DNA of 64,000 bases, taken from assembly GCA_000965745.1 (NCBI GenBank), contig CP009479.1:1920001-1984000 (forward strand), written 5' to 3'. Made by a program: the position numbers and the translations under genes. Positions 10,922 through 39,018 of the stretch are shown piece after piece (position 1 is the stretch's first letter; every line of letters begins with the position of its first letter). The notes under the pieces were generated by a model. It searched no databases, had not been told where the DNA came from, and was given only the letters and a program-made list of their open reading frames with translations. This stretch comes from an uncultured archaeon. GTDB taxonomy: Archaea; Thermoplasmatota; Thermoplasmata; Thermoplasmatales; Thermoplasmataceae.

Positions 10922-11107
10922 AAGCAGACTCTCACATGATATACCATCGTGGCTACGTATACCAATGAAAATTAATATTTAATGATAACGTAGGTTCGCA
11001 AACCAATGATAAATTTCGTTTCACGGGCATTGCTTTGAGAAAACTCTGTATTTTCCAGTGTTTGTAGTTATGTATGCAGCTACATTACTTTATTTATACT
11101 TGGACAT

Positions 11108-12100
11108 ATGAAGAAAAATATGGCTATCGCACAACTTGAGGACGATGTTTTGACATACCTCGAAAGAACGGCAGATATCAGGGAGCTTTACTATGAGCAA
11201 AAGCTCCTTTCTCACATTGAAGGGTATGATCTGGAAAATGATCTGTTTGCAGTAACACCATGGGATATAGAACAGGTAGCCCTGAACACAGGGGCTGGGG
11301 ATTCCACCGAAGTAGTAAACGTACTTGAAAAGTATCGAGACTTTTTTAAGGTGGAAGAAACCGGGGATGGCCTCACTGTAGTGAAACTTATTTCCGACGC
11401 ATTCCCTGAAAAGCTGAAGAGAGGAGTTCCTGAACGGAGCAAGTCCAAAAGCATCACTGTGGAGGATGCGTTCAAATGGTACCTTTACCATAAGATCAGG
11501 GAACAATCCGGGAACGGTACCATGCTGGTGAACATCAGGGACGGCATTTTTTCAATTAAGAATGAGCTCTTTCTACCCGACGATTTTGTGCCGCGTGTAA
11601 TGATGGAAATGGTTGAGGGCAGCAAGATGGTAGATGTTGTTCAGACATGGAGAAACCTTCAGCCATCAAATCAGGGCAATGCCATTTTCCTTTATGGAAA
11701 ACATGACAAGGGAAAATTTCTGGAGCCTGACTCCCTATTCTTCAATTCCAGCCCTGAAGGTGCTGTGCCTGATATGCTACCGGAACTCGGGGAGAAGATA
11801 AGTGCATCTTTCCTGAAATTTCAGGGTACCCGGGAATATGAGGATTTCATTTTCAGCAGGATAATGAGAAATGTGATTTTCAATGTAGAGACTAAGGATA
11901 AAAGGGAGCTCAAAAAACCTCTCTTTGACAGCGGAAAACTGAAAATTCTCGAGAAAAGGGGAATAGCCGTGATAAGGGATGGTTCTGGGATCGTGCCGGA
12001 TGGAGTCAGCATTGAAGAACTTAAGAGTGCCAGGGCAGAAGCAGAGAAAAGTGCTGGAAAAGTCTCAGATATCTGGATGGGAAGCCATATCGGCCTCTGA
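11108..12100 (+). CDS. Hypothetical protein
   Basis: 330-aa ORF with TTTATTTATA box just upstream; no family recognised. Confidence 0.75.
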   Translation: MKKNMAIAQLEDDVLTYLERTADIRELYYEQKLLSHIEGYDLENDLFAVTPWDIEQVALNTGAGDSTEVVNVLEKYRDFFKVEETGDGLTVVKLISDAFPEKLKRGVPERSKSKSITVEDAFKWYLYHKIREQSGNGTMLVNIRDGIFSIKNELFLPDDFVPRVMMEMVEGSKMVDVVQTWRNLQPSNQGNAIFLYGKHDKGKFLEPDSLFFNSSPEGAVPDMLPELGEKISASFLKFQGTREYEDFIFSRIMRNVIFNVETKDKRELKKPLFDSGKLKILEKRGIAVIRDGSGIVPDGVSIEELKSARAEAEKSAGKVSDIWMGSHIGL

Positions 12101-12418
12101 AACTTTCTACCACAGCCTGGGAAAGTTACAGCATTCCCAATGAAGGTCAAAAAGATAGCATGCCTTTCTCAACATATTTTCAGGCAGCTCATACGAAGGT
12201 ATTTCCCTTTGAATTAGAGCCAGCATAAAAACAGATCCTCAATGGAGTTTTCAACTGTTGTCTTCAGGGAAACAGTGCAAGGTGCCTATAGAATTCGAGT
12301 GCAGTCATTGATAGACATGAGGTGCAGGCCCCCTGCATTAGCGTTCAGGCATCCCGTGGATTATCAGACCTTGGAATCATAAATAGAGCCAAATAGTACA
12401 AAAAAATCATGTAGCATA

Positions 12419-12541
12419 ATGCCTGCCGGAAAAGAAGTCGACAAAGATGATGAGTTTCCTGTAAAACATTTCATATATCTGATAATAGGCACAATTGCCA
12501 TAGCCATAGTGGTAGTGCTTGCAATTCCCCTGCTGAGCTGA
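12419..12541 (+). CDS. Small single-pass membrane protein (40 aa; not in ORF track)
   Basis: MPAGKEVDKDDEFPVKHFIYLIIGTIAIAIVVVLAIPLLS: charged N-terminus plus one TM helix. Confidence 0.55.
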   Translation: MPAGKEVDKDDEFPVKHFIYLIIGTIAIAIVVVLAIPLLS

Positions 12542-12583
12542 ATATTTTCATGTCTATGCATCAAGGCTGCACTACAGGCATTT

Positions 12584-13150
12584 TTACCGCATCGGAGCAG
12601 GTATCCTCTCGATTCGTGAAAAAAGAATAAATGAGGTGTATTTGTCATTGCTGAAGAAGGCGTCCTGCTCTATTCCTTCAACTTCAAACCCATTGTTGAT
12701 TAGGACCCTCATGGATGCAAGATTTCCTTCAAGAACCTTTGTCTGAAGCCTTCTCAGTTTGAGCTCCCCGAAGGCATAGTTGCATGCAAGGCCGACAGCC
12801 TCCGTAGCTATCCCTTTGCCTCTGAACTGGCGTCCCACCCAGTAGCCGATATGCGCCTTTCTGTCAAGAAAATTTATGTCACTAAGCCCGACAATACCAG
12901 CTGCCCTGTTCTTGTAAAGAATGAGGAAGTCCACGGCAAAGGGAACTGATCCCGTATCCCTGTTCCTCTCTATGAATTCCACTGCATTCTCGACACCATA
13001 AGGGTGAGGGAAGCTATGGGCACCAATTTTATCCCTTATTTCTATATCGTTTGCCAGAGATGCTATTTCTTCCGCATACCTGATATCGATAGGCGAATCC
13101 AGGGTGATATTCACCCCCGTTAGCTTAGTAAGTCTAGATACACTGGACAC
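12584..13150 (-). CDS. GNAT acetyltransferase, RimJ/RimL family
   Basis: FPHPY, IGYWVG..FRGKGIATEA, NLASMRVL..NGF. Confidence 0.9.
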   Translation of the reverse strand: MSSVSRLTKLTGVNITLDSPIDIRYAEEIASLANDIEIRDKIGAHSFPHPYGVENAVEFIERNRDTGSVPFAVDFLILYKNRAAGIVGLSDINFLDRKAHIGYWVGRQFRGKGIATEAVGLACNYAFGELKLRRLQTKVLEGNLASMRVLINNGFEVEGIEQDAFFSNDKYTSFILFSRIERIPAPMR

Positions 13151-13246
13151 AATTATTCACCAAACGGCTTTGTAGTACATATTGTAGGTATTGAAAAAAT
13201 TGTCGCAATGGGTTATAGTATGTGAACCGCAATAGATTTATTCAGG

Positions 13247-13906
13247 TTGAACCGTATAGTTTCTGGATCTGTATTGAAATTTAGCAAGGCGTTCTTTGTA
13301 GCCGGAATAATTGGCCCATTGGTTACGATTATACTAACTGTGACAGACACATTCATTTCCCCATGGTTCAGCTGGACCCAGAATGCTCTGAGTGATCTTG
13401 GAGTGAACCGGTACTCCTATCTGTTTAATTACTCGCTCATTTTCGAAGGTGTAATGAATTTCTTATTCGCACTGGGACTGATGAACTTCTATGGTTTGAA
13501 GAAGTTGACTGTTGTTTCCCTCATCATAAGTGGGTTGAGCCTTTCCATGGTTGGAATTTTTGTGGAGACCTATCACCCATTCCATCTCGTATTTGCCCTC
13601 GTATATTTCATCCTCTTCCCGCTCGCGATAATAATGTTCAGCAGGGAAATCGGGAGAGAGCATCCTATCCAGTCTAGAACCGGTTATGCATTGTCAGCAG
13701 CTTCCCTGGTTACCATAATAATCGGTGTCGCGGTTGCTTTCGGGTTTATCGGCAATGCAAGCATAGGACTGGCCATTCCGGAGATGGTTGAAGCCGTTCT
13801 TCTTGGAGGCTGGAGCGTGTATATCGGAAGCTGGTCGCTTACCATGGGCAGCCAGTCGGGAGCCTCAAATCCATTGCAGGAAACGGAGGCCAGGGCTCAC
13901 CAGTAA
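13247..13906 (+). CDS. DUF998-family membrane protein
   Basis: SPWFSWTQNALSDLG, VGIF..H, AIPE. Confidence 0.8.
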   Translation: MNRIVSGSVLKFSKAFFVAGIIGPLVTIILTVTDTFISPWFSWTQNALSDLGVNRYSYLFNYSLIFEGVMNFLFALGLMNFYGLKKLTVVSLIISGLSLSMVGIFVETYHPFHLVFALVYFILFPLAIIMFSREIGREHPIQSRTGYALSAASLVTIIIGVAVAFGFIGNASIGLAIPEMVEAVLLGGWSVYIGSWSLTMGSQSGASNPLQETEARAHQ

Positions 13907-25344: not shown

Positions 25345-25439
25345 CAGCTAGGGGAGCCAAAAGAAACTGCTGAGAGGACAGCAAATGTTTGCTGCCGACC
25401 CTTAAACCTGATCCGGGCAATGCCGGCGAAGGGAAGCAC
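25345..25439 (+). ncRNA. TPP (THI-box) riboswitch
   Basis: GCTAGGGGAGCC...GCTGAGAGG...GACCCTT.AACCTGATCCGGGCAATGCCGGCGAAGGGAAGC matches the TPP aptamer consensus; lies directly upstream of a thiamine ABC transporter. Confidence 0.93.
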
Positions 25440-25473
25440 AGTTCTGGAGAGACTTCTCTGGCAGGAGGAAAAC

Positions 25474-26631
25474 ATGGATCCTGCAAGAGACGATAAGGCA
25501 AGAGTAAGCAAGTACAGATCTTATAGGAAGCGGGTAATTGCACTCGTAATAGCTGTAGTGGTGGTAATAGCTGGCTTTTCAGTTTACTACAGCCTGATAA
25601 GCAAGCCAACTGGAGAGAAGACGCTGACTGTTTATACATACAGCTCTTTCATGGCTTACGGCCCGAACAAGACAAAAGCGTTCAACGCTGTTTTCGGGAC
25701 TTTTGAGAAAGCCCACAATGTGAAAATTGTTGTTAAGACCCCAGGAAATGGTATCCTGCAGCAGCTCCAGGCTGAAAAGAACAACCCCCGGGCGGATATT
25801 GTGATCGGCCTCACCAACATGAATGGAGTGGTGGCCTCGTCTCAGGGCCTTCTGGTTAACTACACGCCCCCGGCCGACAGTTACATCAATTCGTCGCTTC
25901 TGAAGGATATGGGGTCTGCGGCCAGTTACATCACCCCTTACGAATATTCGTACCTGGGGATAGATTACAATAAATCCTTTGTCAACAGTACTTCATCCGC
26001 GGTGAATGGGAGCTTTATGCCATCATTCGGTGACCTTGCCGGCAGTGCCCTTGCATCCAACCTCCTTCTTGAAAATCCCACGGTTGACGACACCGGCCTC
26101 GGTTTCCTGCTGTGGCAGATAGCGTATTACAAATATGTGCTTCACGACAGCAACTGGACTGACTGGTGGAACGCTACAAAACCATACACACAGGGCCATA
26201 TCTATGACTCATGGGATACGGCCTTCAGCTATTTCGACACCGGAAACCACACAAATCTTCTTGTGAGTTACCTTACGGACCCTGCGTACAACAATTTCTT
26301 CGGCTATGGAAATTCAACCGGATCATCCGTAACATACCACAACGGCACAGCATACGGCTGGAGAACAATATACGGGACCGGAATCGTGAACGGTTCGTCA
26401 AACCTCACCCTGGACAAGGAGTTTGTGAATTATTTCCTCAGTCCCACTGTGCAGAATGAAATACCTACTAACGAGTGGATGTACCCTGCAAATTCAAGCA
26501 TTGCCCTGCCCCCCTCATTCGATGTGCTCCCCAACCAGAATAACATATATCCCTTGAACAACTATGTTACAGCGTCAGATATTGCAGCGAATATCCAGAC
26601 CTGGGAGACACAATGGCTGAATCTGCAGTGA
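25474..26631 (+). CDS. thiB: Thiamine ABC transporter substrate-binding protein
   Basis: LTVYTYSSF, EKNNPRADIVIG, TGLGFL, VSYLTDP, NEWMYP; start moved to ATG 25474 after GGAGG, since ORF-track start 25420 lies inside the riboswitch. Confidence 0.9.
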   Translation: MDPARDDKARVSKYRSYRKRVIALVIAVVVVIAGFSVYYSLISKPTGEKTLTVYTYSSFMAYGPNKTKAFNAVFGTFEKAHNVKIVVKTPGNGILQQLQAEKNNPRADIVIGLTNMNGVVASSQGLLVNYTPPADSYINSSLLKDMGSAASYITPYEYSYLGIDYNKSFVNSTSSAVNGSFMPSFGDLAGSALASNLLLENPTVDDTGLGFLLWQIAYYKYVLHDSNWTDWWNATKPYTQGHIYDSWDTAFSYFDTGNHTNLLVSYLTDPAYNNFFGYGNSTGSSVTYHNGTAYGWRTIYGTGIVNGSSNLTLDKEFVNYFLSPTVQNEIPTNEWMYPANSSIALPPSFDVLPNQNNIYPLNNYVTASDIAANIQTWETQWLNLQ

Positions 26632-28262
26632 AGATTACGAAGGGCAGAAACACCCTTAAATGGCTTCTGCTTTTCACTCCATCCATTTTTATTGCCGCGG
26701 TAGTGGTATACCCGTTCATACAGCTCCTGTACAGCAATGCTAATTTTGACTTTGCAAGTCAGATCACTGGAAGTTCCCCTGTGGCGCAACTTACAAGAAA
26801 AGCAATACAGAACTCAATTGTTCAGGGTGCTGTCAGTGCCTTGCTGTCCTTCGTTGCAGGACTTCCGGTTGGCCTTTTCCTTGGGAGGCATACATTCAGG
26901 TTCAAGCGCATGGTCAATTCAATAGTGATTATCCCCTTCTTTCTTCCATCAATACTTGTTGTTTTCGCCTTCATTTCCGGATTCGGGTCCAACTCATCCA
27001 TGGCACACATCCTACCGTTCACGGAGTCGGCTTCCTCAGGCTTTACGGGAATAATCGCAGTAAATACATTCTTCAATGCACCCCTCGTTGCATTGTTCAC
27101 CATGACTGCGGTTGAGCAAAGTGATGTAGCACTCAATGAGGCCGCCATGACCCTTGGTGCTGCAGATGTCAGAAGATTCAGGACAGTCTGGGGAAAGGAT
27201 GCGCTTCTTGCGGCCAGTGGTGCTGCACTTCTGGCATTTACCTATTCTTTCGCAGGTTTTGCAGCTCCCCTGATTATTGGGGGGCCGGGATATTTCACTC
27301 TCGACGCATGGATATACTTCATGGTCAAGACATTGAATAATCTTCAAGCAGCCATGGTGCTTGCCCTGATTGAGGCCCTTATTCTGGTTTTGCCCGCACT
27401 TTCATACATCATATTCAGTTCAAGGCAGAGAAGGGTTACGGGGAGCCAACTGAGGCTCCCGGTTCAGGATCAAAGAAAAAATGGCTACTTTTACGCCGGG
27501 GCCGCATACACTTTTTTCTGGGTTGTTGTTGAACTCTATCTTCTTTCGTCTGTTTTTGCGGCTTCACTTGAAAATTCATCCGGACAGTGGTGGCACTTTG
27601 CAAACTATATTCAGCTGTTCGGGGGGAGAACTACTTCGGCCATCGGTATTTCGGCTGCTTCCAGCATCCTCAACACTGTATTCTATGGCACCATGACGTC
27701 GCTGCTTGTAGTCACCCTTGGCCTGATGTGGATAACCGGGAGGAGGCGGCTGAACTACAAAAACCGTTTTGCCTCGGAGCCTTTGCAGTATGTTCCCCTG
27801 ATAATCTCATCTATTATCATGGCCTTCTCGGTCTCAGTGGTTTTTGGAGTTATCACCCCGGAGAGCCTCATCTGGGTGCTCATCATACTTGCCCAGACCT
27901 CTGTGGCGATTCCTGTGGTGCTAAGGGTGATCGATTCCGGTTTCTCTTCAATATCACACACGTACACTGAGGCTGCCCTTACACTCAGAGGCAATCCCTT
28001 CTTCGAAGTTGAGATGCCAATGGCCAGATCTACTTTTGCATCCGCCCTGATGTTTGCCTTTGCAATAAGCCTGGGGGAGTTCTCTGCCACTAATTTCCTG
28101 GCCACTACAAATTACGTTCCACTGACTGTTGAAATGTATCTGCTGAGAGGCGTGAGACTTTTTGGGGCTTCTTTTGCCGCAGCTTCACTGCTCCTTATTA
28201 TAAGCATTGTTTCGTTCTACTTCATCCAGAGGTTAGGTGAGAGATTTATTGGCTTTCGTTGA
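26613..28262 (+). CDS. thiP: Thiamine ABC transporter permease
   Basis: Duplicated permease with PFFLP, EAAMTLGA, EAALTL and SLGEF; probable GTG start 26628 overlapping the thiB stop. Confidence 0.88.
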   Translation: MAESAVKITKGRNTLKWLLLFTPSIFIAAVVVYPFIQLLYSNANFDFASQITGSSPVAQLTRKAIQNSIVQGAVSALLSFVAGLPVGLFLGRHTFRFKRMVNSIVIIPFFLPSILVVFAFISGFGSNSSMAHILPFTESASSGFTGIIAVNTFFNAPLVALFTMTAVEQSDVALNEAAMTLGAADVRRFRTVWGKDALLAASGAALLAFTYSFAGFAAPLIIGGPGYFTLDAWIYFMVKTLNNLQAAMVLALIEALILVLPALSYIIFSSRQRRVTGSQLRLPVQDQRKNGYFYAGAAYTFFWVVVELYLLSSVFAASLENSSGQWWHFANYIQLFGGRTTSAIGISAASSILNTVFYGTMTSLLVVTLGLMWITGRRRLNYKNRFASEPLQYVPLIISSIIMAFSVSVVFGVITPESLIWVLIILAQTSVAIPVVLRVIDSGFSSISHTYTEAALTLRGNPFFEVEMPMARSTFASALMFAFAISLGEFSATNFLATTNYVPLTVEMYLLRGVRLFGASFAAASLLLIISIVSFYFIQRLGERFIGFR

Positions 28263-29208
28263 GATCAGGAACCTGGTCAGGCACTATTCGGGAAATTTCA
28301 AGCTGTACAACATCAGTCTCGAACTTGAGAGGGGGGAAACTCTGACGTTAATGGGCCCTAGCGGATCGGGGAAAACATCACTGCTTAGAAATGTTTGTGG
28401 GCTCGACATCCCTGACTCCGGCAGAATCACTGTTGGTGGAAGGGACATAACGTACCTGCCCACGACAAAAAGGAACATCGGCCTGATTTTTCAGGACCTG
28501 GCCATCTTTCCACACATGAAGGTCTATGACAACATTGCCTATGGATTGCGTGCAAAGAACGTTCATGAAAGAGATATTGAAGATAGGGTTGAAGAATTGT
28601 CAGGCATGCTTGGTATCAAGAGCCTCCTTGAAAGATTTCCCGGCCAGATTTCAGGGGGTCAGAGGCAAAGGGTAGCACTGGCAAGGTCTGTAGCACCTTC
28701 ACCTTCCGTGCTTCTTCTCGATGAGCCCATGAGCTCCCTCGACATGCAGCTTAGAAGCAGTGTCAGGAGCGAGATAAAGTCGTTTGCAAAGAAGATGGAG
28801 CTTACGATGATTTACGTCACCCATGACCACAACGAAGGGCTCTACATGGCTGACAAGACAGGAATAATGTACGACGGTTCCATAGAAAGGATAGCCCCGC
28901 CGCAGGATCTGTTTACACACCCCGGAACTGAGAGGACTGCCAAGTTCTTCGGATATAATGTTGTGACCGCCGATGGCAGGAAAGTCGCTTTCTACCCTTC
29001 CGATTTCAAGGTCGCTGCCGAGGGCCCTGAAATGTCTGGAAAGATCGTGTCAATCGGTTTCGAAGGTGAGCACGACAGGGCTCACGTAATGATGGATAGC
29101 GGTGATCTCGTTCAACTGGAGTTTCCACCCGGAAAATACATAGGAAAGCTCGCTCCCGGAGACCGTATAGGCATCACCATTACCCGAACAGAAGACCTGA
29201 CCGGTTGA
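28237..29208 (+). CDS. thiQ: Thiamine ABC transporter ATP-binding protein
   Basis: GPSGSGKT, ISGGQRQR, LLLDEP, VTHD; operon context. Confidence 0.85.
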   Translation: MRDLLAFVEIRNLVRHYSGNFKLYNISLELERGETLTLMGPSGSGKTSLLRNVCGLDIPDSGRITVGGRDITYLPTTKRNIGLIFQDLAIFPHMKVYDNIAYGLRAKNVHERDIEDRVEELSGMLGIKSLLERFPGQISGGQRQRVALARSVAPSPSVLLLDEPMSSLDMQLRSSVRSEIKSFAKKMELTMIYVTHDHNEGLYMADKTGIMYDGSIERIAPPQDLFTHPGTERTAKFFGYNVVTADGRKVAFYPSDFKVAAEGPEMSGKIVSIGFEGEHDRAHVMMDSGDLVQLEFPPGKYIGKLAPGDRIGITITRTEDLTG

Positions 29209-30640: not shown

Positions 30641-31780
30641 CTACCTTACAAAGGGCTCCGGCATGGATTTGATAACATTATAGACTTCAAGCCTCATCAC
30701 TTCAGGAGGAGGAAGCTGTTCGGAACTTATGATCTCCCTCAGCTTTGTCCCGCTGAACCTCTCCTGGTATGAAGAGGGATGTGCACACTCCCTGTCTGTT
30801 ACAAGCTGCTCGCATTTTCTGCAGTAGAACGTCTCCTCGAAAGGCACTATGCTTATACCGAGGTCATTGAAATTTCTGAGATTTTCCTGCGCCTCATAGG
30901 GTCCGTAAAAAGATCCCACGCCGGCATGGTCCCTGCCAACTATGAAGTGGCTGCATCCAAAGTTCTTCCTCATTATTGCATGCATAACAGCTTCCCTCGG
31001 GCCTGCATACATCATCTCATAATGCAGTGGAGTTAGCAGTACCTTGTTGGGTGGGTAATACGATTCTACAAGGGCCGAATACGCCTTCATTATGGCCTCG
31101 TCCGTATAGTCGCCTTTCTTCTTTCTCCCGATTACGGGATTGATGAACAGGCCGTCCGTTGACCTGAGTGAGAGCCGCTGAATCTGTTCATGACCCCTGT
31201 GTGGCACATTTCTTGTCTGGAATGCCGATACAGTTGTCCACCCTCTTTCCGAAAATATCTTCCTGGTTTCCTTGGGAAATAATGTATCGGAAATAAACGG
31301 CACCGCAACGTTTCCGGCAGCCGTTATTTTTCCTGCCACAGCGACATTTCCTGCCTCCTGCACTTTTGCGACGCCGGGATGGTCTGCTGAATTTGTTCCA
31401 AAAACGCTCTCTGAATGCTTCTTCTTGTCGTACCTGTAGAGCTGGGATACTTCGATTTCAGCGATAGGATTCCCGCCGTATGAAAGGACTGCCGTATCTC
31501 CCTCCCTGACCTTCCCGGACGAATCCTCGCCGATGCCCATCATTATGGGAATACTCCATGGAGTTCCGTTTTCAAGCCTCTGTTCATTGAGAATGCTATG
31601 ATAATCGTTCTCTTCAACAAAGCCTGTTATGGGACTCAGGATCCCGTTCTTGATATCCATCACGGTTACTGCGGTTTCATAGCTTACTTCTATGAAGCCT
31701 TTATAATCGGAGCGGTCCAGGCTGTCCGGAGACATGTCCCTTATTTCAACGAGTTTTCCTCCGTGTGGCATTGGAAGCAT
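30641..31780 (-). CDS. sat: Sulfate adenylyltransferase (ATP sulfurylase)
   Basis: PHGGKL, QTRNVPHRGHE, YAGPREA, GRDHAGVG, SGTKLR. Confidence 0.96.
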   Translation of the reverse strand: MLPMPHGGKLVEIRDMSPDSLDRSDYKGFIEVSYETAVTVMDIKNGILSPITGFVEENDYHSILNEQRLENGTPWSIPIMMGIGEDSSGKVREGDTAVLSYGGNPIAEIEVSQLYRYDKKKHSESVFGTNSADHPGVAKVQEAGNVAVAGKITAAGNVAVPFISDTLFPKETRKIFSERGWTTVSAFQTRNVPHRGHEQIQRLSLRSTDGLFINPVIGRKKKGDYTDEAIMKAYSALVESYYPPNKVLLTPLHYEMMYAGPREAVMHAIMRKNFGCSHFIVGRDHAGVGSFYGPYEAQENLRNFNDLGISIVPFEETFYCRKCEQLVTDRECAHPSSYQERFSGTKLREIISSEQLPPPEVMRLEVYNVIKSMPEPFVR

Positions 31781-32553
31781 CAGTTTCCACCCCCGTTGCT
31801 TCCGCTTTCATGATTATTGGCCCTGAATTCGGGAGCAGCGCCCCATGAGGAGCTGTCCTTGACGTGCAGCCCGCATTCCTTGACGTCTGTCTCCCACCAC
31901 CATCTCCCGGCGCGTTCGCCTTCCCCTGGCTTGACTGCCCTGGTGCATGGGGCACACCCGATGCTTGGGTATCCTTGATCATGGAGGCTGTTGTACGGGA
32001 CATTATTCTTCCTGATGTAATTCCAGACCTCATCGGACGTTAACTTCAATATGGGGTTCACTTTCACCAGGTTACGCCGGGAATCCAATTCAAGAACCTC
32101 TGCATCCTGCCTGAAGCTGGTCTGGTCTGCCCTGAGGCCGGTTACCCATGCTTTCTTCCCTTTCAGCAACCTGTTCAGGGGTTCCACTTTCCTTATTCCG
32201 CAGCATAGTTTCCTGTTCTCCACAGATTTGTAGAAGAGGTTCATCCCTTTGTTCCGGACCATTTCCTCGACCTTCCCAAATTCCGGGAAGTATGACCTTA
32301 TAACTACTCCGTAATTGGACGCCACTCTGTCCATGAGTTCGTAGGTCTCCTCTGGCAGCCTTCCGGTATCAATTGTAGCTATGGGAATCCGGACATCCTT
32401 CTTCGCCATCATGTCTATAACAACCATATCTTCAGCGCCGAAGCTTGAAGTAAATACTGCATCTTCCCCGAAACTATTCCAGGTCCACTCGAGTATCTCC
32501 TCTGGCGTCAGAGCCTCGATCTCTGGATAGTTCTCTTTCAGTGACATATGCAT
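31780..32553 (-). CDS. cysH: APS/PAPS reductase; CC and CxxC indicate the [4Fe-4S] APS-reductase type
   Basis: SSFG, DTG, LCCGIRKVEPL, YPSIGCAPCT, ECGLH. Confidence 0.93.
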   Translation of the reverse strand: MHMSLKENYPEIEALTPEEILEWTWNSFGEDAVFTSSFGAEDMVVIDMMAKKDVRIPIATIDTGRLPEETYELMDRVASNYGVVIRSYFPEFGKVEEMVRNKGMNLFYKSVENRKLCCGIRKVEPLNRLLKGKKAWVTGLRADQTSFRQDAEVLELDSRRNLVKVNPILKLTSDEVWNYIRKNNVPYNSLHDQGYPSIGCAPCTRAVKPGEGERAGRWWWETDVKECGLHVKDSSSWGAAPEFRANNHESGSNGGGN

Positions 32554-32584
32554 TACAATTCCCGTGGAGCATATTAGCGCTTGT

Positions 32585-32613
32585 TTGTGGGAAGTTTAAG
32601 TGAGTTGTGGGAA
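32585..32613. promoter_or_regulatory. Tandem TTGTGGGAA direct repeat (20-bp period) in the cysH/comA divergent promoter; candidate operator
   Basis: TTGTGGGAA at 32585-32593 and 32605-32613; TATTTAA box at about 32634. Confidence 0.5.
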
Positions 32614-32664
32614 CTAAATGCGCATATGTCAACTATTTAAGCACCCTCTCATTAATCAGGGTGA

Positions 32665-33654
32665 ATGATTTCAAACAGATTCCTTGGTGACCTAATCCCG
32701 TTGGAAAATGACAGGAAGGGGCTGGGAAATACAATGGTTCTTGACAGGCTGGCACCCATAGACTGGGAAATCCTTCCCGACCTTGCATCCTTTATCAGTG
32801 TTGTGAAGATAGGCTGGACACTGCCCCTGCTTCTCAAGAGAAGCACGCTGGTTGACAGAATCAGCAGATACAGGAAATCCGGGGTATCAGTATCACCTGG
32901 AGGAACACTTCTTGAGATGGCAGTCAACAAGGGAAGGGCGGACAAGGCTCTCGAATCAATCAGGGATGCCGGTTTTGACACTGTTGAGCTGAGTGAAGGA
33001 GTCATTGATGTGCCTCCCTATATAAAGAAGGGAATAGTTGATTTTGCCCATTCAAACGGAATGAGGCTGAACATAGAGGTGGGGAAGAAGAATCCGAGAA
33101 ATCAGCTGAGCCTCGATGAAACTATACAGAGGGTTTCTGAGTCCCTGGATTTTGGCCCTGATTTTGTAATCATAGAAGGGAGGGAGGCGGGACGGAGTGT
33201 TGAGATTTTTGACGACCTCGGTGACATCAAATGGGACTGGGTAAACAGGATAATCGAGGAGTATCCCCGGAACAGGATAATGTTTGAGGCACCGATTGAG
33301 AAACAGCAGATCGAGCTGGTGATAAGGCTTGGATCATCTGTAAACCTGGGAAACGTATCATTCAACAGTGTTGCTGCACTTGAGACACAAAGGCGCGGCC
33401 TTCGTGGTGACACTTTTGGAGTTGTTGACAACACAGTGAAAGTCTCGGGTCCACCCTCAAACAAGTTCGTCTATTACATAGTCGCAAACCATGGCCCGAT
33501 TGATCAGGCCTCCATGATGGATCTGACCGGGATGAACAGGAAAACTGTGCAGAATGCCTTGACTGAACTGCTAGAGAATGGCCTGATAAAGGCAGCCACT
33601 GACAGGAAGGACCTGAGGAAGCGTGTTTATTCCATAAATTCCGGCCTGCAGTGA
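32665..33654 (+). CDS. comA: (2R)-phospho-3-sulfolactate synthase with C-terminal winged-HTH domain
   Basis: PGGTLLE, EVGKK, IIEGREAG, FEAP, VNLGNV, LETQRRGLRGDTF; C-terminal KFVYYIV..HGPIDQ..LTGMNRKTVQNALTELLENGLI..DLRKRVY. Confidence 0.9.
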   Translation: MISNRFLGDLIPLENDRKGLGNTMVLDRLAPIDWEILPDLASFISVVKIGWTLPLLLKRSTLVDRISRYRKSGVSVSPGGTLLEMAVNKGRADKALESIRDAGFDTVELSEGVIDVPPYIKKGIVDFAHSNGMRLNIEVGKKNPRNQLSLDETIQRVSESLDFGPDFVIIEGREAGRSVEIFDDLGDIKWDWVNRIIEEYPRNRIMFEAPIEKQQIELVIRLGSSVNLGNVSFNSVAALETQRRGLRGDTFGVVDNTVKVSGPPSNKFVYYIVANHGPIDQASMMDLTGMNRKTVQNALTELLENGLIKAATDRKDLRKRVYSINSGLQ

Positions 33655-33928: not shown

Positions 33929-34534
33929 TTATGAAACTACAAATGTGCCATACATCCATCCGGGAGTCTCCATGGAAAACGGCCCGCATTCACACATACA
34001 TCCCCATGAGTATACACCTGGTTGGGTGAAAGTTACATTAGTCATGACAGCAGAATCTGGCGGTATTGGAATATTCAGGCCATTGCTGGTAGTGAAGGTG
34101 TGGGAGATATTGGAAGGCGCGATGAAGGAAACACCTCTTGCAGAAGGCAGGAACACTTCAGAATCACTGATTGGGAAACTGGAATTTGTATACTGCTTTA
34201 CGTTCATTATGCCGGTATCTGACCCGGAAAGGTTTGCATCAGAGGATTTAAGCAATTTGTCGATACCAGGGTCCTGGTTGAACACCGTTATCCTTACGGA
34301 GACATTGGAGGGGACGTTTATTGCCGCTGAAGACTGGTCCACACCCCCAACAAGGACGTAGAAAGCATAATCCGTGACGTTGTCCTGTGTCCGCAGGGCA
34401 ATTCCAAGATTGAGCTGGAAGGATGAAGTCTGTTTCACAGGGTGTGGCAATTGAGGCACATAGGGCGATATGGATATGAAAAGAGAGAGGATGATGAAAA
34501 ACAATGCCACAGCCATCAGCTTCTGATTGCCCAT
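33929..34534 (-). CDS. Membrane-anchored cupredoxin-like protein
   Basis: N-terminal TM, SHTFT, FTQPGVYSWGCMCECG..M..PGWMYGTFVV. Confidence 0.65.
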   Translation of the reverse strand: MGNQKLMAVALFFIILSLFISISPYVPQLPHPVKQTSSFQLNLGIALRTQDNVTDYAFYVLVGGVDQSSAAINVPSNVSVRITVFNQDPGIDKLLKSSDANLSGSDTGIMNVKQYTNSSFPISDSEVFLPSARGVSFIAPSNISHTFTTSNGLNIPIPPDSAVMTNVTFTQPGVYSWGCMCECGPFSMETPGWMYGTFVVS

Positions 34535-36100: not shown

Positions 36101-36988
36101 TTAACGCGGCCTATTCTCCCTTGAAAGCAGTTCTGACCATCGTCTTTCCACGGCCTCCTGAATCATGGAAGTCTCGGTGCTGTTGAGGTGCCTGAATCTA
36201 TTCTGCTTTCTTAAATATTCCCAGACCTGGAGCTGTTCCGAAGGCCTTGTCAGTTTGAACATCCCGTTCCTGTATTCATAGAGCGGAAATATTCTGGTTT
36301 TCACAGCCAGCCTGGACATTTCCACCGTTTCATCAGGTGAGAAGTACCACCCGGTGGGACAGGGGGTGAGTATCTGAATGAATTTTGGCCCCTCTGTCTC
36401 CTTCGCATTCCTGACTTTTCTGATGAGGTCCTCAGGGTATGCTATCGTCGCAGTTGCAACGTAAGGAACACCCTGGGCAATCATGAGGTCAGCAACCATT
36501 TTCTTTTCCTGTTTCTTGAAGTTTCTCCTCTTCCCGAGAGGAGTTGTGGTTGTGGTTGCACCGAACGGCGTGCTCCCTGACCTCTGTACACCGGTGTTCA
36601 TGTAAGCTTCATTGTCATACATGATGTAGAATACATTGTGGCCCCTTTCCATTGCGCCACTCAGGGACTGGAGTCCAATATCCGCAGTCCCTCCATCCCC
36701 TGCAAAGCCTACAACACTGTAATCCTCTTTCCCCTGCAGGTCAAGAGATTCCCTGATGCCTGTAATTGATGCACCTGTCGACGCGAATGGTGTGTATATC
36801 ATTGGAACATCGAGGCTCCTGTAAGGCATTGCACCAGGTATCACGGCCCAGCATGATGCAGGCACCGAAACTACTGTCTTCTCTCCCAGGCCCTTAAGAA
36901 GGTATCTCATCGCAAGAGTTGCCCCGCACCCATGGCAGGCGGTGTGGCCGGGTTCCATGAGTTCTTCCCTGGGTAACGAGAATGGCAT
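36101..36988 (-). CDS. porB: Pyruvate/ketoisovalerate:ferredoxin oxidoreductase beta subunit
   Basis: GHTACHGCG, GDGGTADIG, DNEAYMNTG, PCPTGW. Confidence 0.9.
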   Translation of the reverse strand: MPFSLPREELMEPGHTACHGCGATLAMRYLLKGLGEKTVVSVPASCWAVIPGAMPYRSLDVPMIYTPFASTGASITGIRESLDLQGKEDYSVVGFAGDGGTADIGLQSLSGAMERGHNVFYIMYDNEAYMNTGVQRSGSTPFGATTTTTPLGKRRNFKKQEKKMVADLMIAQGVPYVATATIAYPEDLIRKVRNAKETEGPKFIQILTPCPTGWYFSPDETVEMSRLAVKTRIFPLYEYRNGMFKLTRPSEQLQVWEYLRKQNRFRHLNSTETSMIQEAVERRWSELLSRENRPR

Positions 36989-38167
36989 TTATTCACCTCC
37001 TTTTGTGTTTATCCAGCGTATCCCTTCACTGCCTTCTTCAACCATTTCGTACATCTTTCTGAATTCCTCCACCCTGACATCCCTGCCGCCGAGGCCTGCT
37101 ACGAATCCTGTTAGTGGGACATCTGCCTTTCTGTACAGGGATGCAGACACTTCGGAGTAGAGAGACCCCCCATCCGAGAAAGCAAGTGATCTGTCTATTA
37201 CGCCGGCTCCCTTCAGGCCCTTCAGTGAGCTGACGATTTCTTCTGACGGGAAAGGCCTGAAAAATTTGACCCGGACAAGGCCAACCTTTTTGCCTTCATT
37301 TCTTAGGAGGTTGACCACATGCTTTGCAGTGGAGGCAAGAGTTCCGGTTGCCACCAGTGCAAACTCGGCATCTTCCATCATGTAGTTGTCCGTAAGTCCG
37401 GCATAGTCACGGCCAAAACTCTCTGAAAAGTCCCTGTATGTCTTCTCGATGACAGCCCTGGCTTTGTTCATTGAGTCTGCCATGTCCTTCTTGAGTTCCA
37501 TGAATGGCCCATCCGGAGTGGAATAGGAGCCATAGCCCATGGGGTTCTTGAAATCCACCGTGAAGTCCAGGTCAAATTCAGGGAGGAAATCCCTTACCTG
37601 CGAAATATCCGGGACAGTCACAGGCTCTGATGTATGGGAAAGTATGAAGGCATCTTCCATGCTCATCAGTGGGAGTTTGACACTCCTGTCCTCCGCTATC
37701 CTGTACCCCATTATGATTGTATCAAGAACTTCCTGGTTTGACTCGCAGTAAACCTGCAACCACCCCGTGTCCTTCTGGTTCATGCTGTCTGTCTGGTCTG
37801 CCCATATATTCCATGGCGGGCCTATAGCCCTGTTAACCACACTGACAACTATGGGAAGCCTCATTCCGGCAGTCCAGTGAAGCATTTCATGCATGTAAAG
37901 CAGCCCGTGGGAACTTGTTGCCGTGTACGAACGCACCCCCGTGAGTTCGCTGGAAAAGACTGCAGTCATTGCGCTGTGCTCGCTCTCCACCTCAACATAC
38001 CTGGCATCAAGCTCTTCGTTGGCCACCATTTCTGCCAGTTTCTCGACGATTGTGGTCTGCGGCGTTATAGGATAGGCTGAGATAAACCTGACGTCAGAGA
38101 GTTTCACCCCAATTGCTGCCGCCTCGTTTCCCGTCACAAGCGCCTTCGTCTGTGCCATGGACTTCAT
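36989..38167 (-). CDS. porA: Pyruvate/ketoisovalerate:ferredoxin oxidoreductase alpha subunit
   Basis: GNEAAA, YPITPQT, ESEHSA, RPFP, GLGGRD. Confidence 0.9.
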   Translation of the reverse strand: MKSMAQTKALVTGNEAAAIGVKLSDVRFISAYPITPQTTIVEKLAEMVANEELDARYVEVESEHSAMTAVFSSELTGVRSYTATSSHGLLYMHEMLHWTAGMRLPIVVSVVNRAIGPPWNIWADQTDSMNQKDTGWLQVYCESNQEVLDTIIMGYRIAEDRSVKLPLMSMEDAFILSHTSEPVTVPDISQVRDFLPEFDLDFTVDFKNPMGYGSYSTPDGPFMELKKDMADSMNKARAVIEKTYRDFSESFGRDYAGLTDNYMMEDAEFALVATGTLASTAKHVVNLLRNEGKKVGLVRVKFFRPFPSEEIVSSLKGLKGAGVIDRSLAFSDGGSLYSEVSASLYRKADVPLTGFVAGLGGRDVRVEEFRKMYEMVEEGSEGIRWINTKGGE

Positions 38168-38463
38168 TGACTCAGACCTCCCTCCAGGGACATTTCAATT
38201 GAGTCTTCAGGGCATTCGTATGCGCATATTCCGCACCCCTTGCAGTGTTCAAGGTCTATCTCCGGAGCCTCGAGTTTCCCTATGCGCTCGCTGGGGGCTT
38301 CCAGAGCATTGGATTCCGATACGGTGATTGCGTTATCGGGGCAGAATTTCCAGCATATCATGCACCTGATGCATGTTGAATAATCAATCCGGGGAGTCTG
38401 AATGCGCCATGAATCTGTCCTGTTTTCCCTTGATCCCTTTTGCGTTACAGGAACTAAAACCAT
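38164..38463 (-). CDS. porD: Oxidoreductase delta subunit (2x[4Fe-4S])
   Basis: WR..P, CIRCMICWKFCP, CKGCGICAYECP. Confidence 0.9.
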   Translation of the reverse strand: MVLVPVTQKGSRENRTDSWRIQTPRIDYSTCIRCMICWKFCPDNAITVSESNALEAPSERIGKLEAPEIDLEHCKGCGICAYECPEDSIEMSLEGGLSQ

Positions 38464-38466
38464 ATG

Positions 38467-39018
38467 CTACCACCCCGCCCTGGCAGAGTCATATGCGTCA
38501 AGGACAGCTGCAGCATTCTCGTCACCATATCTTGGAGATGCAGTTCTTGTGGCTTCGACTATGCTATCTAGAGAGACGTTTTGGTCTGCTTTAGCGAACG
38601 CACCAAGTATGGCGGTGTTGACTATGGGGTTGGCCCTGCTTCCAAGATTGTGCCTTATTGCTATCGAAGTGGCGTCCACAGTCACTACCTTCCTGCCTGT
38701 TCCAAACTCCTCAGGTGGCTTGCTTGAATTGATGACCAGCAGCCCATCTTCCTTTAGCCCCTTCATAACGTCTGTGGACCCCATAACTGATGAGTCCAGT
38801 ATTACGATGGCGTCAGGGTCGTATATCTGGCTTCTGAGAAATATCCTCTTCTCATCGATCCTGGTGAAGGAAGTAACGGGGGCACCTCTTCTTTCAGTCC
38901 CGAAGAATGGAAATGATAAAACATACTTTCCTTCGTTGAAAGCTGCAAGCGCAAGAATTCTTGAGGCCGTTACAGCACCCTGCCCGCCCCTGCCATGAAA
39001 ACGAATTTCGAGCATCAA
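38467..39018 (-). CDS. porG: Oxidoreductase gamma subunit
   Basis: EIRFHGRGGQGAVT, FGTERRGAPV, NTAILGA. Confidence 0.9.
   Translation of the reverse strand: MMLEIRFHGRGGQGAVTASRILALAAFNEGKYVLSFPFFGTERRGAPVTSFTRIDEKRIFLRSQIYDPDAIVILDSSVMGSTDVMKGLKEDGLLVINSSKPPEEFGTGRKVVTVDATSIAIRHNLGSRANPIVNTAILGAFAKADQNVSLDSIVEATRTASPRYGDENAAAVLDAYDSARAGW

Follow-up and report, generated by a model that had tools for sequence, protein, structure and literature searches.

The 64,000-nucleotide stretch of DNA analysed here (positions 1,920,001 to 1,984,000 of contig CP009479.1, below called the window) carries a sulfur cassette in which an operon for adenosine 5'-phosphosulfate (APS) reductase (cysH) and ATP sulfurylase (sat) stands back-to-back with a gene whose product joins a phosphosulfolactate synthase (ComA) to a domain of the winged helix-turn-helix (wHTH) type at its C terminus. 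The host genome is a single contig, 99.4% complete, from the Thermoplasmataceae, and the closest relatives of the cassette locus are Thermoplasmataceae loci. An earlier interpretation of the letters alone (the sequence-only reading) had called the host archaeal and had described cysH and sat as abutting and as diverging from comA across about 110 base pairs (bp); both statements hold, the measured gap being 111 bp. The features of the locus are the following (aa, amino acids).

30641-31780, minus strand: sat, ATP sulfurylase, 379 aa (PF01747 and PF14306 domains; QTRN, HRGH and GRDHAG motifs)
31780-32553, minus strand: cysH, thioredoxin-dependent [4Fe-4S] APS reductase, 257 aa (PF01507)
32554-32664: divergent promoter region, 111 bp, between cysH and the ComA-wHTH gene
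32586-32594, plus strand: additional left half-site TGTGGGAAG, which precedes the palindrome by 20 bp and overlaps the candidate cysH TATA box
32593-32600, minus strand: candidate TATA box CTTAAACT for cysH-sat, read by eye
32606-32626: candidate operator, an imperfect 21-bp palindrome centred 49 bp before the comA start (expectation-maximisation (EM) motif)
32634-32641, plus strand: candidate TATA box TATTTAAG, read by eye, some 27 bp ahead of the comA start codon (ATG)
32665-33654, plus strand: ComA-wHTH fusion gene, 329 aa (open reading frame, PF02679, homologue search)
32719-33411, plus strand: ComA triosephosphate isomerase (TIM) barrel domain, aa 19-249 (PF02679, Foldseek, residue comparison)
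33448-33636, plus strand: C-terminal wHTH, aa ~262-324 (secondary structure of the model, conservation)

Sat exceeds both of its profile cut-offs (TIGR00339, 354.8 versus 322.95 bits; PRK04149, 448.3 versus 387), and CysH exceeds that of the thioredoxin-dependent APS reductases (TIGR02055, 258.4 versus 235.3 bits), with cluster-ligand cysteines in its CC and CxxC motifs. From this family membership, the pair converts sulfate through APS to sulfite. The TGA stop of cysH and the ATG of sat overlap by one base, and the spacing between cysH and comA in relatives is 86-131 bp (extrapolated). One contig from a separate sequencing study covers the entire cassette unbroken, with an identical intergenic region, which excludes misassembly as the origin of the fusion.

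The barrel of the fusion is a member of the ComA fold family. PF02679 matches residues 19-249 at 210.7 bits (cut-off 25.2, E 3e-62), and in a Foldseek comparison the predicted model (mean predicted local distance difference test (pLDDT) score 88.8) matches the TIM barrel of M. jannaschii ComA (1QWG) with E 1e-22 and 38% identity. The lysine and the acidic and arginine set of the active site (D27, K48, E108, E138, K142, E171, R173, E208, R243 and R247) are identical to those of methanogen ComA. K142, aligned with M. jannaschii K137, which is reported to be the catalytic lysine (Wise et al. 2003), is found in 68 of 68 fused sequences, and E108, E138, E171 and E208 are invariant. The fusion differs from the M. 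jannaschii enzyme in its additional C-terminal domain and in the company it keeps, as comC, comDE and comF were not detected in the host genome. It also scores below the methanogen ComA equivalog TIGR03849 (215 versus 280 bits), and in the tree the fused barrels group in a single clade that excludes unfused and methanogen ComA (64 rows, support 100/98). Changes fixed in this clade near the active site are K to R28, WGTS to WGLP or WTLP (L/I53-P54), L to Q242 and W190/W192; E111 is a further fixed change. The protein thus shares the ComA fold and lies outside the methanogen equivalog, the coenzyme M pathways and the yit cluster of B. subtilis described below.

At aa 264-324 the predicted model has three helices and a two-strand wing. 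Pfam matches on aa 269-322 to MarR_2 and TrmB are weak and under cut-off (PF12802, 20.5 bits, under the 27 bits of MarR-family membership), the chain stops after the wing, and profile comparison gives weak matches to structures of the MarR/SlyA/Lrp type, including PcaV, SlyA and AdcR. The domain shares with MarR/SlyA-type regulators the helix-turn-helix, the wing and a DxxDxRxRxY signature, but it is the core wHTH only, without the C-terminal dimerisation helices of MarR. Eight of its positions (P264, F268, R292, T294, L302, D316, R318 and Y322) are invariant in 66-67 fused sequences from two phyla. All 120 best homologues are in the same length class as the fusion, many with PF12802, and the search for a stand-alone family of this wHTH gave two short, uninformative fragments. 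The sequence-only reading had recognised a wHTH here, on which the weak Pfam matches and the model agree, and its description of the protein as an enzyme-regulator fusion is very likely correct, with a ComA barrel and a conserved wHTH in one chain.

A homotrimer through the barrel is predicted with a score of 0.90 against 0.00 for the best control (contact agreement at least 77%, pLDDT at least 85), a mark attained by 20 of 30 solved pairs and by 1 of 23 single chains. This score may reflect memory of, or likeness to, the solved ComA trimer; the barrel of the fusion is probably trimeric, like that of M. jannaschii.

Second copies of ComA-wHTH exist at loci L105, L108, L112 and L120 (L- and G-numbers denote other loci and genomes in the comparison, G000 being the genome under study). 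In these paralogues R247 is replaced by Ala and, in most, D249 by Glu; they are possibly degenerate sensor copies. Opposite the copies at L108 and L112 stands a small GTPase of the Ras/Roc type, and radA lies downstream.

The three-gene arrangement recurs well beyond this genome. ComA was found in 41 of 84 sampled Thermoplasmataceae genomes and in none of the other searched families of the order. All 30 inspected family loci have the wHTH, and 28 of them have a divergent cysH; the genome-wide set holds 60 informative fusion loci, 51 of them with a divergent cysH and 43 with sat inside the locus. Across 81 neighbourhoods no fourth gene is conserved and the flanks are unrelated. With such counts of divergent cysH among unrelated flanks the arrangement is far beyond chance, and the linkage of sat and cysH to comA, which the sequence-only reading had made a point on which it could fail, holds: sat, cysH and comA-wHTH are one conserved unit. 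In the 85 family genomes searched for both genes, comA and sat occur together in 40, comA alone in 2, sat alone in 7 and neither in 36; kin not being independent, such family counts are descriptions and not tests. Paired DsrAB-like NIR_SIR domains are present in four of the seven sat-only genomes. Across the family, NIR_SIR domains occur in 13 of 101 genomes, mostly as adjacent DsrAB-like pairs (L141-L143), and several of these genomes have a sat unlinked to comA.

Where the cassette is altered, the partner of the fusion changes. In three Thaumarchaeota loci it faces an SsuABC-type (SsuA/TauA) sulfonate ATP-binding cassette (ABC) importer; at L065 its partner is an exporter of the YeiH type beside agl3, the gene for a UDP-sulfoquinovose synthase, and at L068 and L104 agl3 lies immediately downstream. 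Three family loci with a broken cassette (L094, L115 and L045) have it facing glycosyltransferase or heptose-pathway genes, and in Sysuiplasma-like genomes it faces cysH alone, sat lying elsewhere behind an aprA-like gene. The 16 genomes outside the family that have the fusion, of unknown completeness, contain sat in all 16, cysH in 11, agl3 in 8, comB (the presumed next enzyme) in 3 and comD in none. The fusion would thus appear to behave like a regulator, because it stands constantly head-to-head with sulfur-supply genes that vary, and the presumed next enzyme is not retained. At L068, Agl3 (11477-13762, plus strand) is split by a probable intein, an insertion containing LAGLIDADG, and a short sat remnant (11075-11266) lies between this gene and the ComA-wHTH gene.

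The divergent region contains a candidate operator for such a regulator. EM on 38 non-redundant intergenic regions gave a palindrome of odd length, with the family consensus tATRnGnAWWWWWTnCnYATa; even-length palindromes fitted more poorly. The site at 32606-32626 scores 14.5 bits, second best of 2.2 million genome positions, and with close relatives out of the training set its score drops to 9.4 bits (rank 76), the position staying as it was. In eight of nine sequences excluded from training, the best site lies at -47 to -50. A palindrome of at least 10 bits is found in 35 of 51 cysH-divergent loci (partly the training set) and in 8 of 378 control upstream windows. Held-out fusion loci without cysH gave sites of at least 9.5 bits in seven of nine cases; elsewhere in these loci, 3 of 57 upstream windows did so (Fisher p 5e-6, exaggerated by kinship). 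In the Thaumarchaeota loci the palindrome overlaps the start of the fusion itself, as expected of an autoregulator. Of 27 loci, 6 have an additional half-site at offset -20 and 9 have one at +11. In the present locus the palindrome is positioned between the two candidate TATA boxes; the placement of that of comA, at whose offset aligned loci have a weak TTA consensus, would imply a leaderless comA-wHTH transcript.

Held-out L045 has a 15.5-bit site (L045:3367-3387), across which, in G079, the fusion faces a gmhA-like operon. The third-best site in the genome under study (13.8 bits, L184:13383-13403, G000 C1:1768382) is flanked by a glycosyltransferase gene and a gmhA-like gene, and a link of the motif to glycan heptose genes is possible, as is chance. 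The top site of the genome (16.4 bits, C1:598081) is upstream of A-type ATP synthase genes.

Whole-genome profile searches bear on where the sulfite goes. As the sequence-only reading had stated, genes for comB, comC, comDE, sulfite reductase and APS kinase are all missing from the window; so are PALP-family genes. In the genome at large there is no PF01077/NIR_SIR domain, hence no sulfite reductase for assimilation to cysteine (a CysK-like gene, below cut-off, lies elsewhere), and neither a SUOX-type sulfite oxidase nor a true APS kinase was found; the PF01583 (APS kinase) match was rejected, being a 52-position P-loop in an Mrp-like protein. The proposal that Sat and APS reductase yield sulfite, which is then not reduced to sulfide for cysteine, is therefore supported. 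What the genome does encode is Agl3, the UDP-sulfoquinovose synthase (NF041015, 635.6 versus 575 bits), about 900 kb from the cassette, and agl3 was found by protein search in 93 of 101 family genomes. In Sulfolobus acidocaldarius the homologous Agl3/SqdB adds sulfite to UDP-glucose (PMC4388408), and the copy in this genome would likewise consume sulfite. The glycans of T. acidophilum carry 6-sulfofucose, for which no biosynthetic route is known (PMC12421959), and the same glycan could be fitted into filament densities from two further Thermoplasmatales (PMC12448462). The genome thus holds a sink for sulfite in a C6 and not a C3 sulfonate, and therefore an alternative to the C3 endpoint that the sequence-only reading had drawn; with no sulfite reductase, Agl3 is most likely the main use. 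Only two family genomes at least 90% complete lack agl3 (G059 and G107); both also lack ComA-wHTH, and they are too few for a test.

The fusion, the synteny, the conserved wHTH, the upstream palindrome and the intact active site are computational observations, and from them we infer binding to the palindrome, an effect of ligand on that binding, and Agl3 as the main destination of sulfite. On balance we lean towards ComA-wHTH being a sulfite-sensing one-component regulator of sulfite supply, possibly still catalytic. The cassette would be a regulated unit for the conversion of sulfate into sulfite by Sat and APS reductase; the barrel would bind sulfite and the magnesium complex of phosphoenolpyruvate (PEP), and may still form phosphosulfolactate. 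The wHTH domains would bind the 21-bp palindrome and the phased half-sites between the back-to-back promoters, and the barrel ligand (sulfite with Mg-PEP, or phosphosulfolactate) would alter this binding, so that cysH-sat and the fusion gene itself are tuned to the sulfite level. Sulfite would go mainly to Agl3, hence to UDP-sulfoquinovose and to sulfosugar-bearing surface glycans, with sulfolactate, if any, as a signal or overflow product. Of the parts of this proposal, binding of the fusion to the cysH/comA promoter is highly probable, and the effector is likely to be sulfite, PEP or phosphosulfolactate. We slightly favour a fusion that is still catalytic, and give a similarly small preference to Agl3 as the main sink.

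The best model for the working of such a protein may be RbkR, the archaeal riboflavin kinase-wHTH trigger enzyme, in which an enzyme domain is likewise joined to a wHTH and whose palindromic operators precede its own gene as well as genes of supply (synthesis or transport) in Thermoplasmatales and Thaumarchaeota (PMC5397151). By computation, a conserved palindromic candidate operator lies in the same way before the fusion gene and its putative targets. The enzyme domain and pathway of RbkR are unrelated to those of the fusion, however, its wHTH is N-terminal and not C-terminal, and the dimeric RbkR has been proven to bind DNA and to catalyse, whereas ComA-wHTH is a predicted trimer with putative binding and catalysis. 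In a bolder form, which we hold only tentatively, a catalytic trimeric ComA would act as the trigger enzyme: it would sense sulfite through its addition to PEP, three wHTHs would bind the palindrome and helically phased half-sites, and the protein would represent an undescribed family of sulfite-responsive transcription factors in Thermoplasmatota and Nitrososphaerota, coupling sulfate activation to sulfosugar glycans without sulfite reductase.

Several results weigh against a sulfite-sensing regulator of this kind. The homotrimer prediction contains no confident wHTH-wHTH contacts, and a trimeric barrel, as predicted, is at odds with a palindrome, which suits a dimer. The motif itself is degenerate and rich in AT: of 11 upstream regions of unfused methanogen or Bacillota comA, three beat their shuffles, one at 13.8 bits, and as the shuffle null was too lenient in passing such AT-rich controls, neighbouring upstream windows were used in its place. 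No motif site lies upstream of agl3 or comB in this genome, and most agl3 and unlinked sat genes elsewhere have none (one, at L135, reaches at least 10 bits; flanks of 1.5 kb). A wider regulon was accordingly set aside, and the predicted regulon is local. The intact catalytic residues are just as compatible with a biosynthetic enzyme at work. In about half of the family agl3 occurs although the cassette does not, so that Agl3 can obtain sulfite otherwise, and in 8 of the 16 fusion-bearing outside genomes no agl3 was found. Three Nitrososphaerota-type loci have agl3 next to the fusion, unlike the present one, and the link of Agl3 to the cassette comes from metabolic logic and occasional synteny and not from a shared regulon.

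The main rival is an endpoint in sulfolactate. Here the fusion would be the first enzyme of a bulk C3 sulfonate module, making phosphosulfolactate from which ComB frees sulfolactate, with the wHTH for feedback only; the product would be an osmolyte, a counter-anion or a glycan or lipid substituent, as in B. subtilis spores. The active-site set identical to methanogen ComA speaks for it, as does the tracking of comA by sat within the family (40 of 42 comA genomes). It can also appeal to a divergent logic shared with B. subtilis, where the yitBA-yisZ operon of sat and (P)APS reductase adjoins yitCD with its comA homologue (PMC517825; YitD, 1U83). The Bacillus genes are under sporulation sigma factors, however, and the present cassette differs in that its sat operon has no APS kinase, its comB is unlinked, and its ComA has a DNA-binding domain and a candidate operator. 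The genome-wide profile search that the sequence-only reading had proposed did return a comB-family gene (L001:1468-2121, G000 C1:375714-376367), while comC, comDE and sulfite reductase were not found. This comB lies about 1.58 Mb from the cassette, next to rpl11 in the L11-L1-L10-L12 ribosomal genes, and scores below the NCBIfam phosphatase cut-offs. It is never in the cassette, and as it is present in 95 of 101 family genomes irrespective of comA, its product probably has a housekeeping substrate; searches of the 16 fusion-bearing outside genomes failed to find comB in 13. The importers and glycan genes faced by the fusion elsewhere, and the changes that its clade has fixed beside the active site, also argue against a bulk C3 product. 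Of the C3-sulfonate endpoint, then, the catalytic residues and the presence of comB survive, so that sulfolactate formation in this family is possible; an unlinked core gene, kept in 3 of 16 outside genomes, and the Agl3 sink count against it. As an account of the cassette we consider it unlikely, though to be taken seriously.

The fusion might instead be a safety valve, the barrel fixing toxic excess sulfite onto PEP for disposal while the wHTH shuts off cysH-sat, with no further role for the product. The missing sulfite reductase and SUOX-type oxidase and the intact catalytic residues would fit this, as would the tight linkage of the fusion to the sulfite-forming cysH even where sat lies elsewhere. 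But the genome encodes four TauE/SafE-family exporters, the expenditure of PEP would be costly when shutting off cysH would suffice, and the proposal overlaps with that of a sulfite-sensing regulator, from which it differs in flux alone; we regard it as quite improbable. There is little chance that the wHTH is a relic or has a structural role, with the palindrome arising as a side effect of AT-rich promoters that stand back-to-back. The sub-threshold Pfam scores and the unfused controls scored by an AT-rich motif would allow this, but the recognition-helix and wing residues are invariant in 66-67 sequences, and the motif is fixed in position in eight of nine left-out sequences and enriched over neighbouring upstream windows.

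A first step to coenzyme M or a cysteate-derived thiol in a non-methanogen is very unlikely, and the least probable of these accounts: homologues of ComA and ComB are both present, but ComC (Ldh_2 family), ComD, ComE, HcyBio/ComF and cysteate synthase are not found over cut-off in this 99.4% complete genome, comD is in none of the 16 outside genomes, and the three fumarate-lyase-family genes are the usual housekeeping number, with no sign of the extra XcbC-type paralogues of the bacterial route (PMC9457059). Matches to TIGR03845/03846 (ComD/ComE), far under cut-off and in large thiamine pyrophosphate enzymes, were rejected. The bacterial route (XcbA-E) has no counterpart near the cassette among the three PF00206 genes, Xcb sequences not having been used as queries. 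The coenzyme M-like and cysteate products suggested by the sequence-only reading are thus rejected along with cysteine, the required genes not having been found in the genome.

We found no description of a ComA-wHTH fusion in the literature searched, most subscription journals lying outside its coverage. If the proposed regulator is real, it would name a sulfur-status regulator, with a specific candidate operator, for Thermoplasmatales and non-nitrifying thaumarchaea, and give ComA a second role beyond coenzyme M synthesis. Annotations of 'phosphosulfolactate synthase' in acid-mine and soil archaea would then not be evidence of coenzyme M or methanogenesis potential. It would also supply a source of sulfite for sulfoquinovose and sulfofucose glycans and explain why sat and cysH are kept without sulfite reductase.

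Three neighbours in the window complete the description. The 201-aa protein encoded at 33929-34534 (minus strand) has a membrane anchor at its N terminus and, at the C-terminal end, a Cys-x-Cys-x-Cys...Met motif, and resembles cupredoxins of the sulfocyanin/rusticyanin type (no Pfam match at E 0.01). The genes at 25420-29208 (plus strand) encode a binding protein, a large permease and an ATPase which, from translation only, look like an ABC importer of the thiamine/iron type. A four-subunit 2-oxoacid:ferredoxin oxidoreductase operon occupies 36101-39018 (minus strand), its synteny extending within the genus only.

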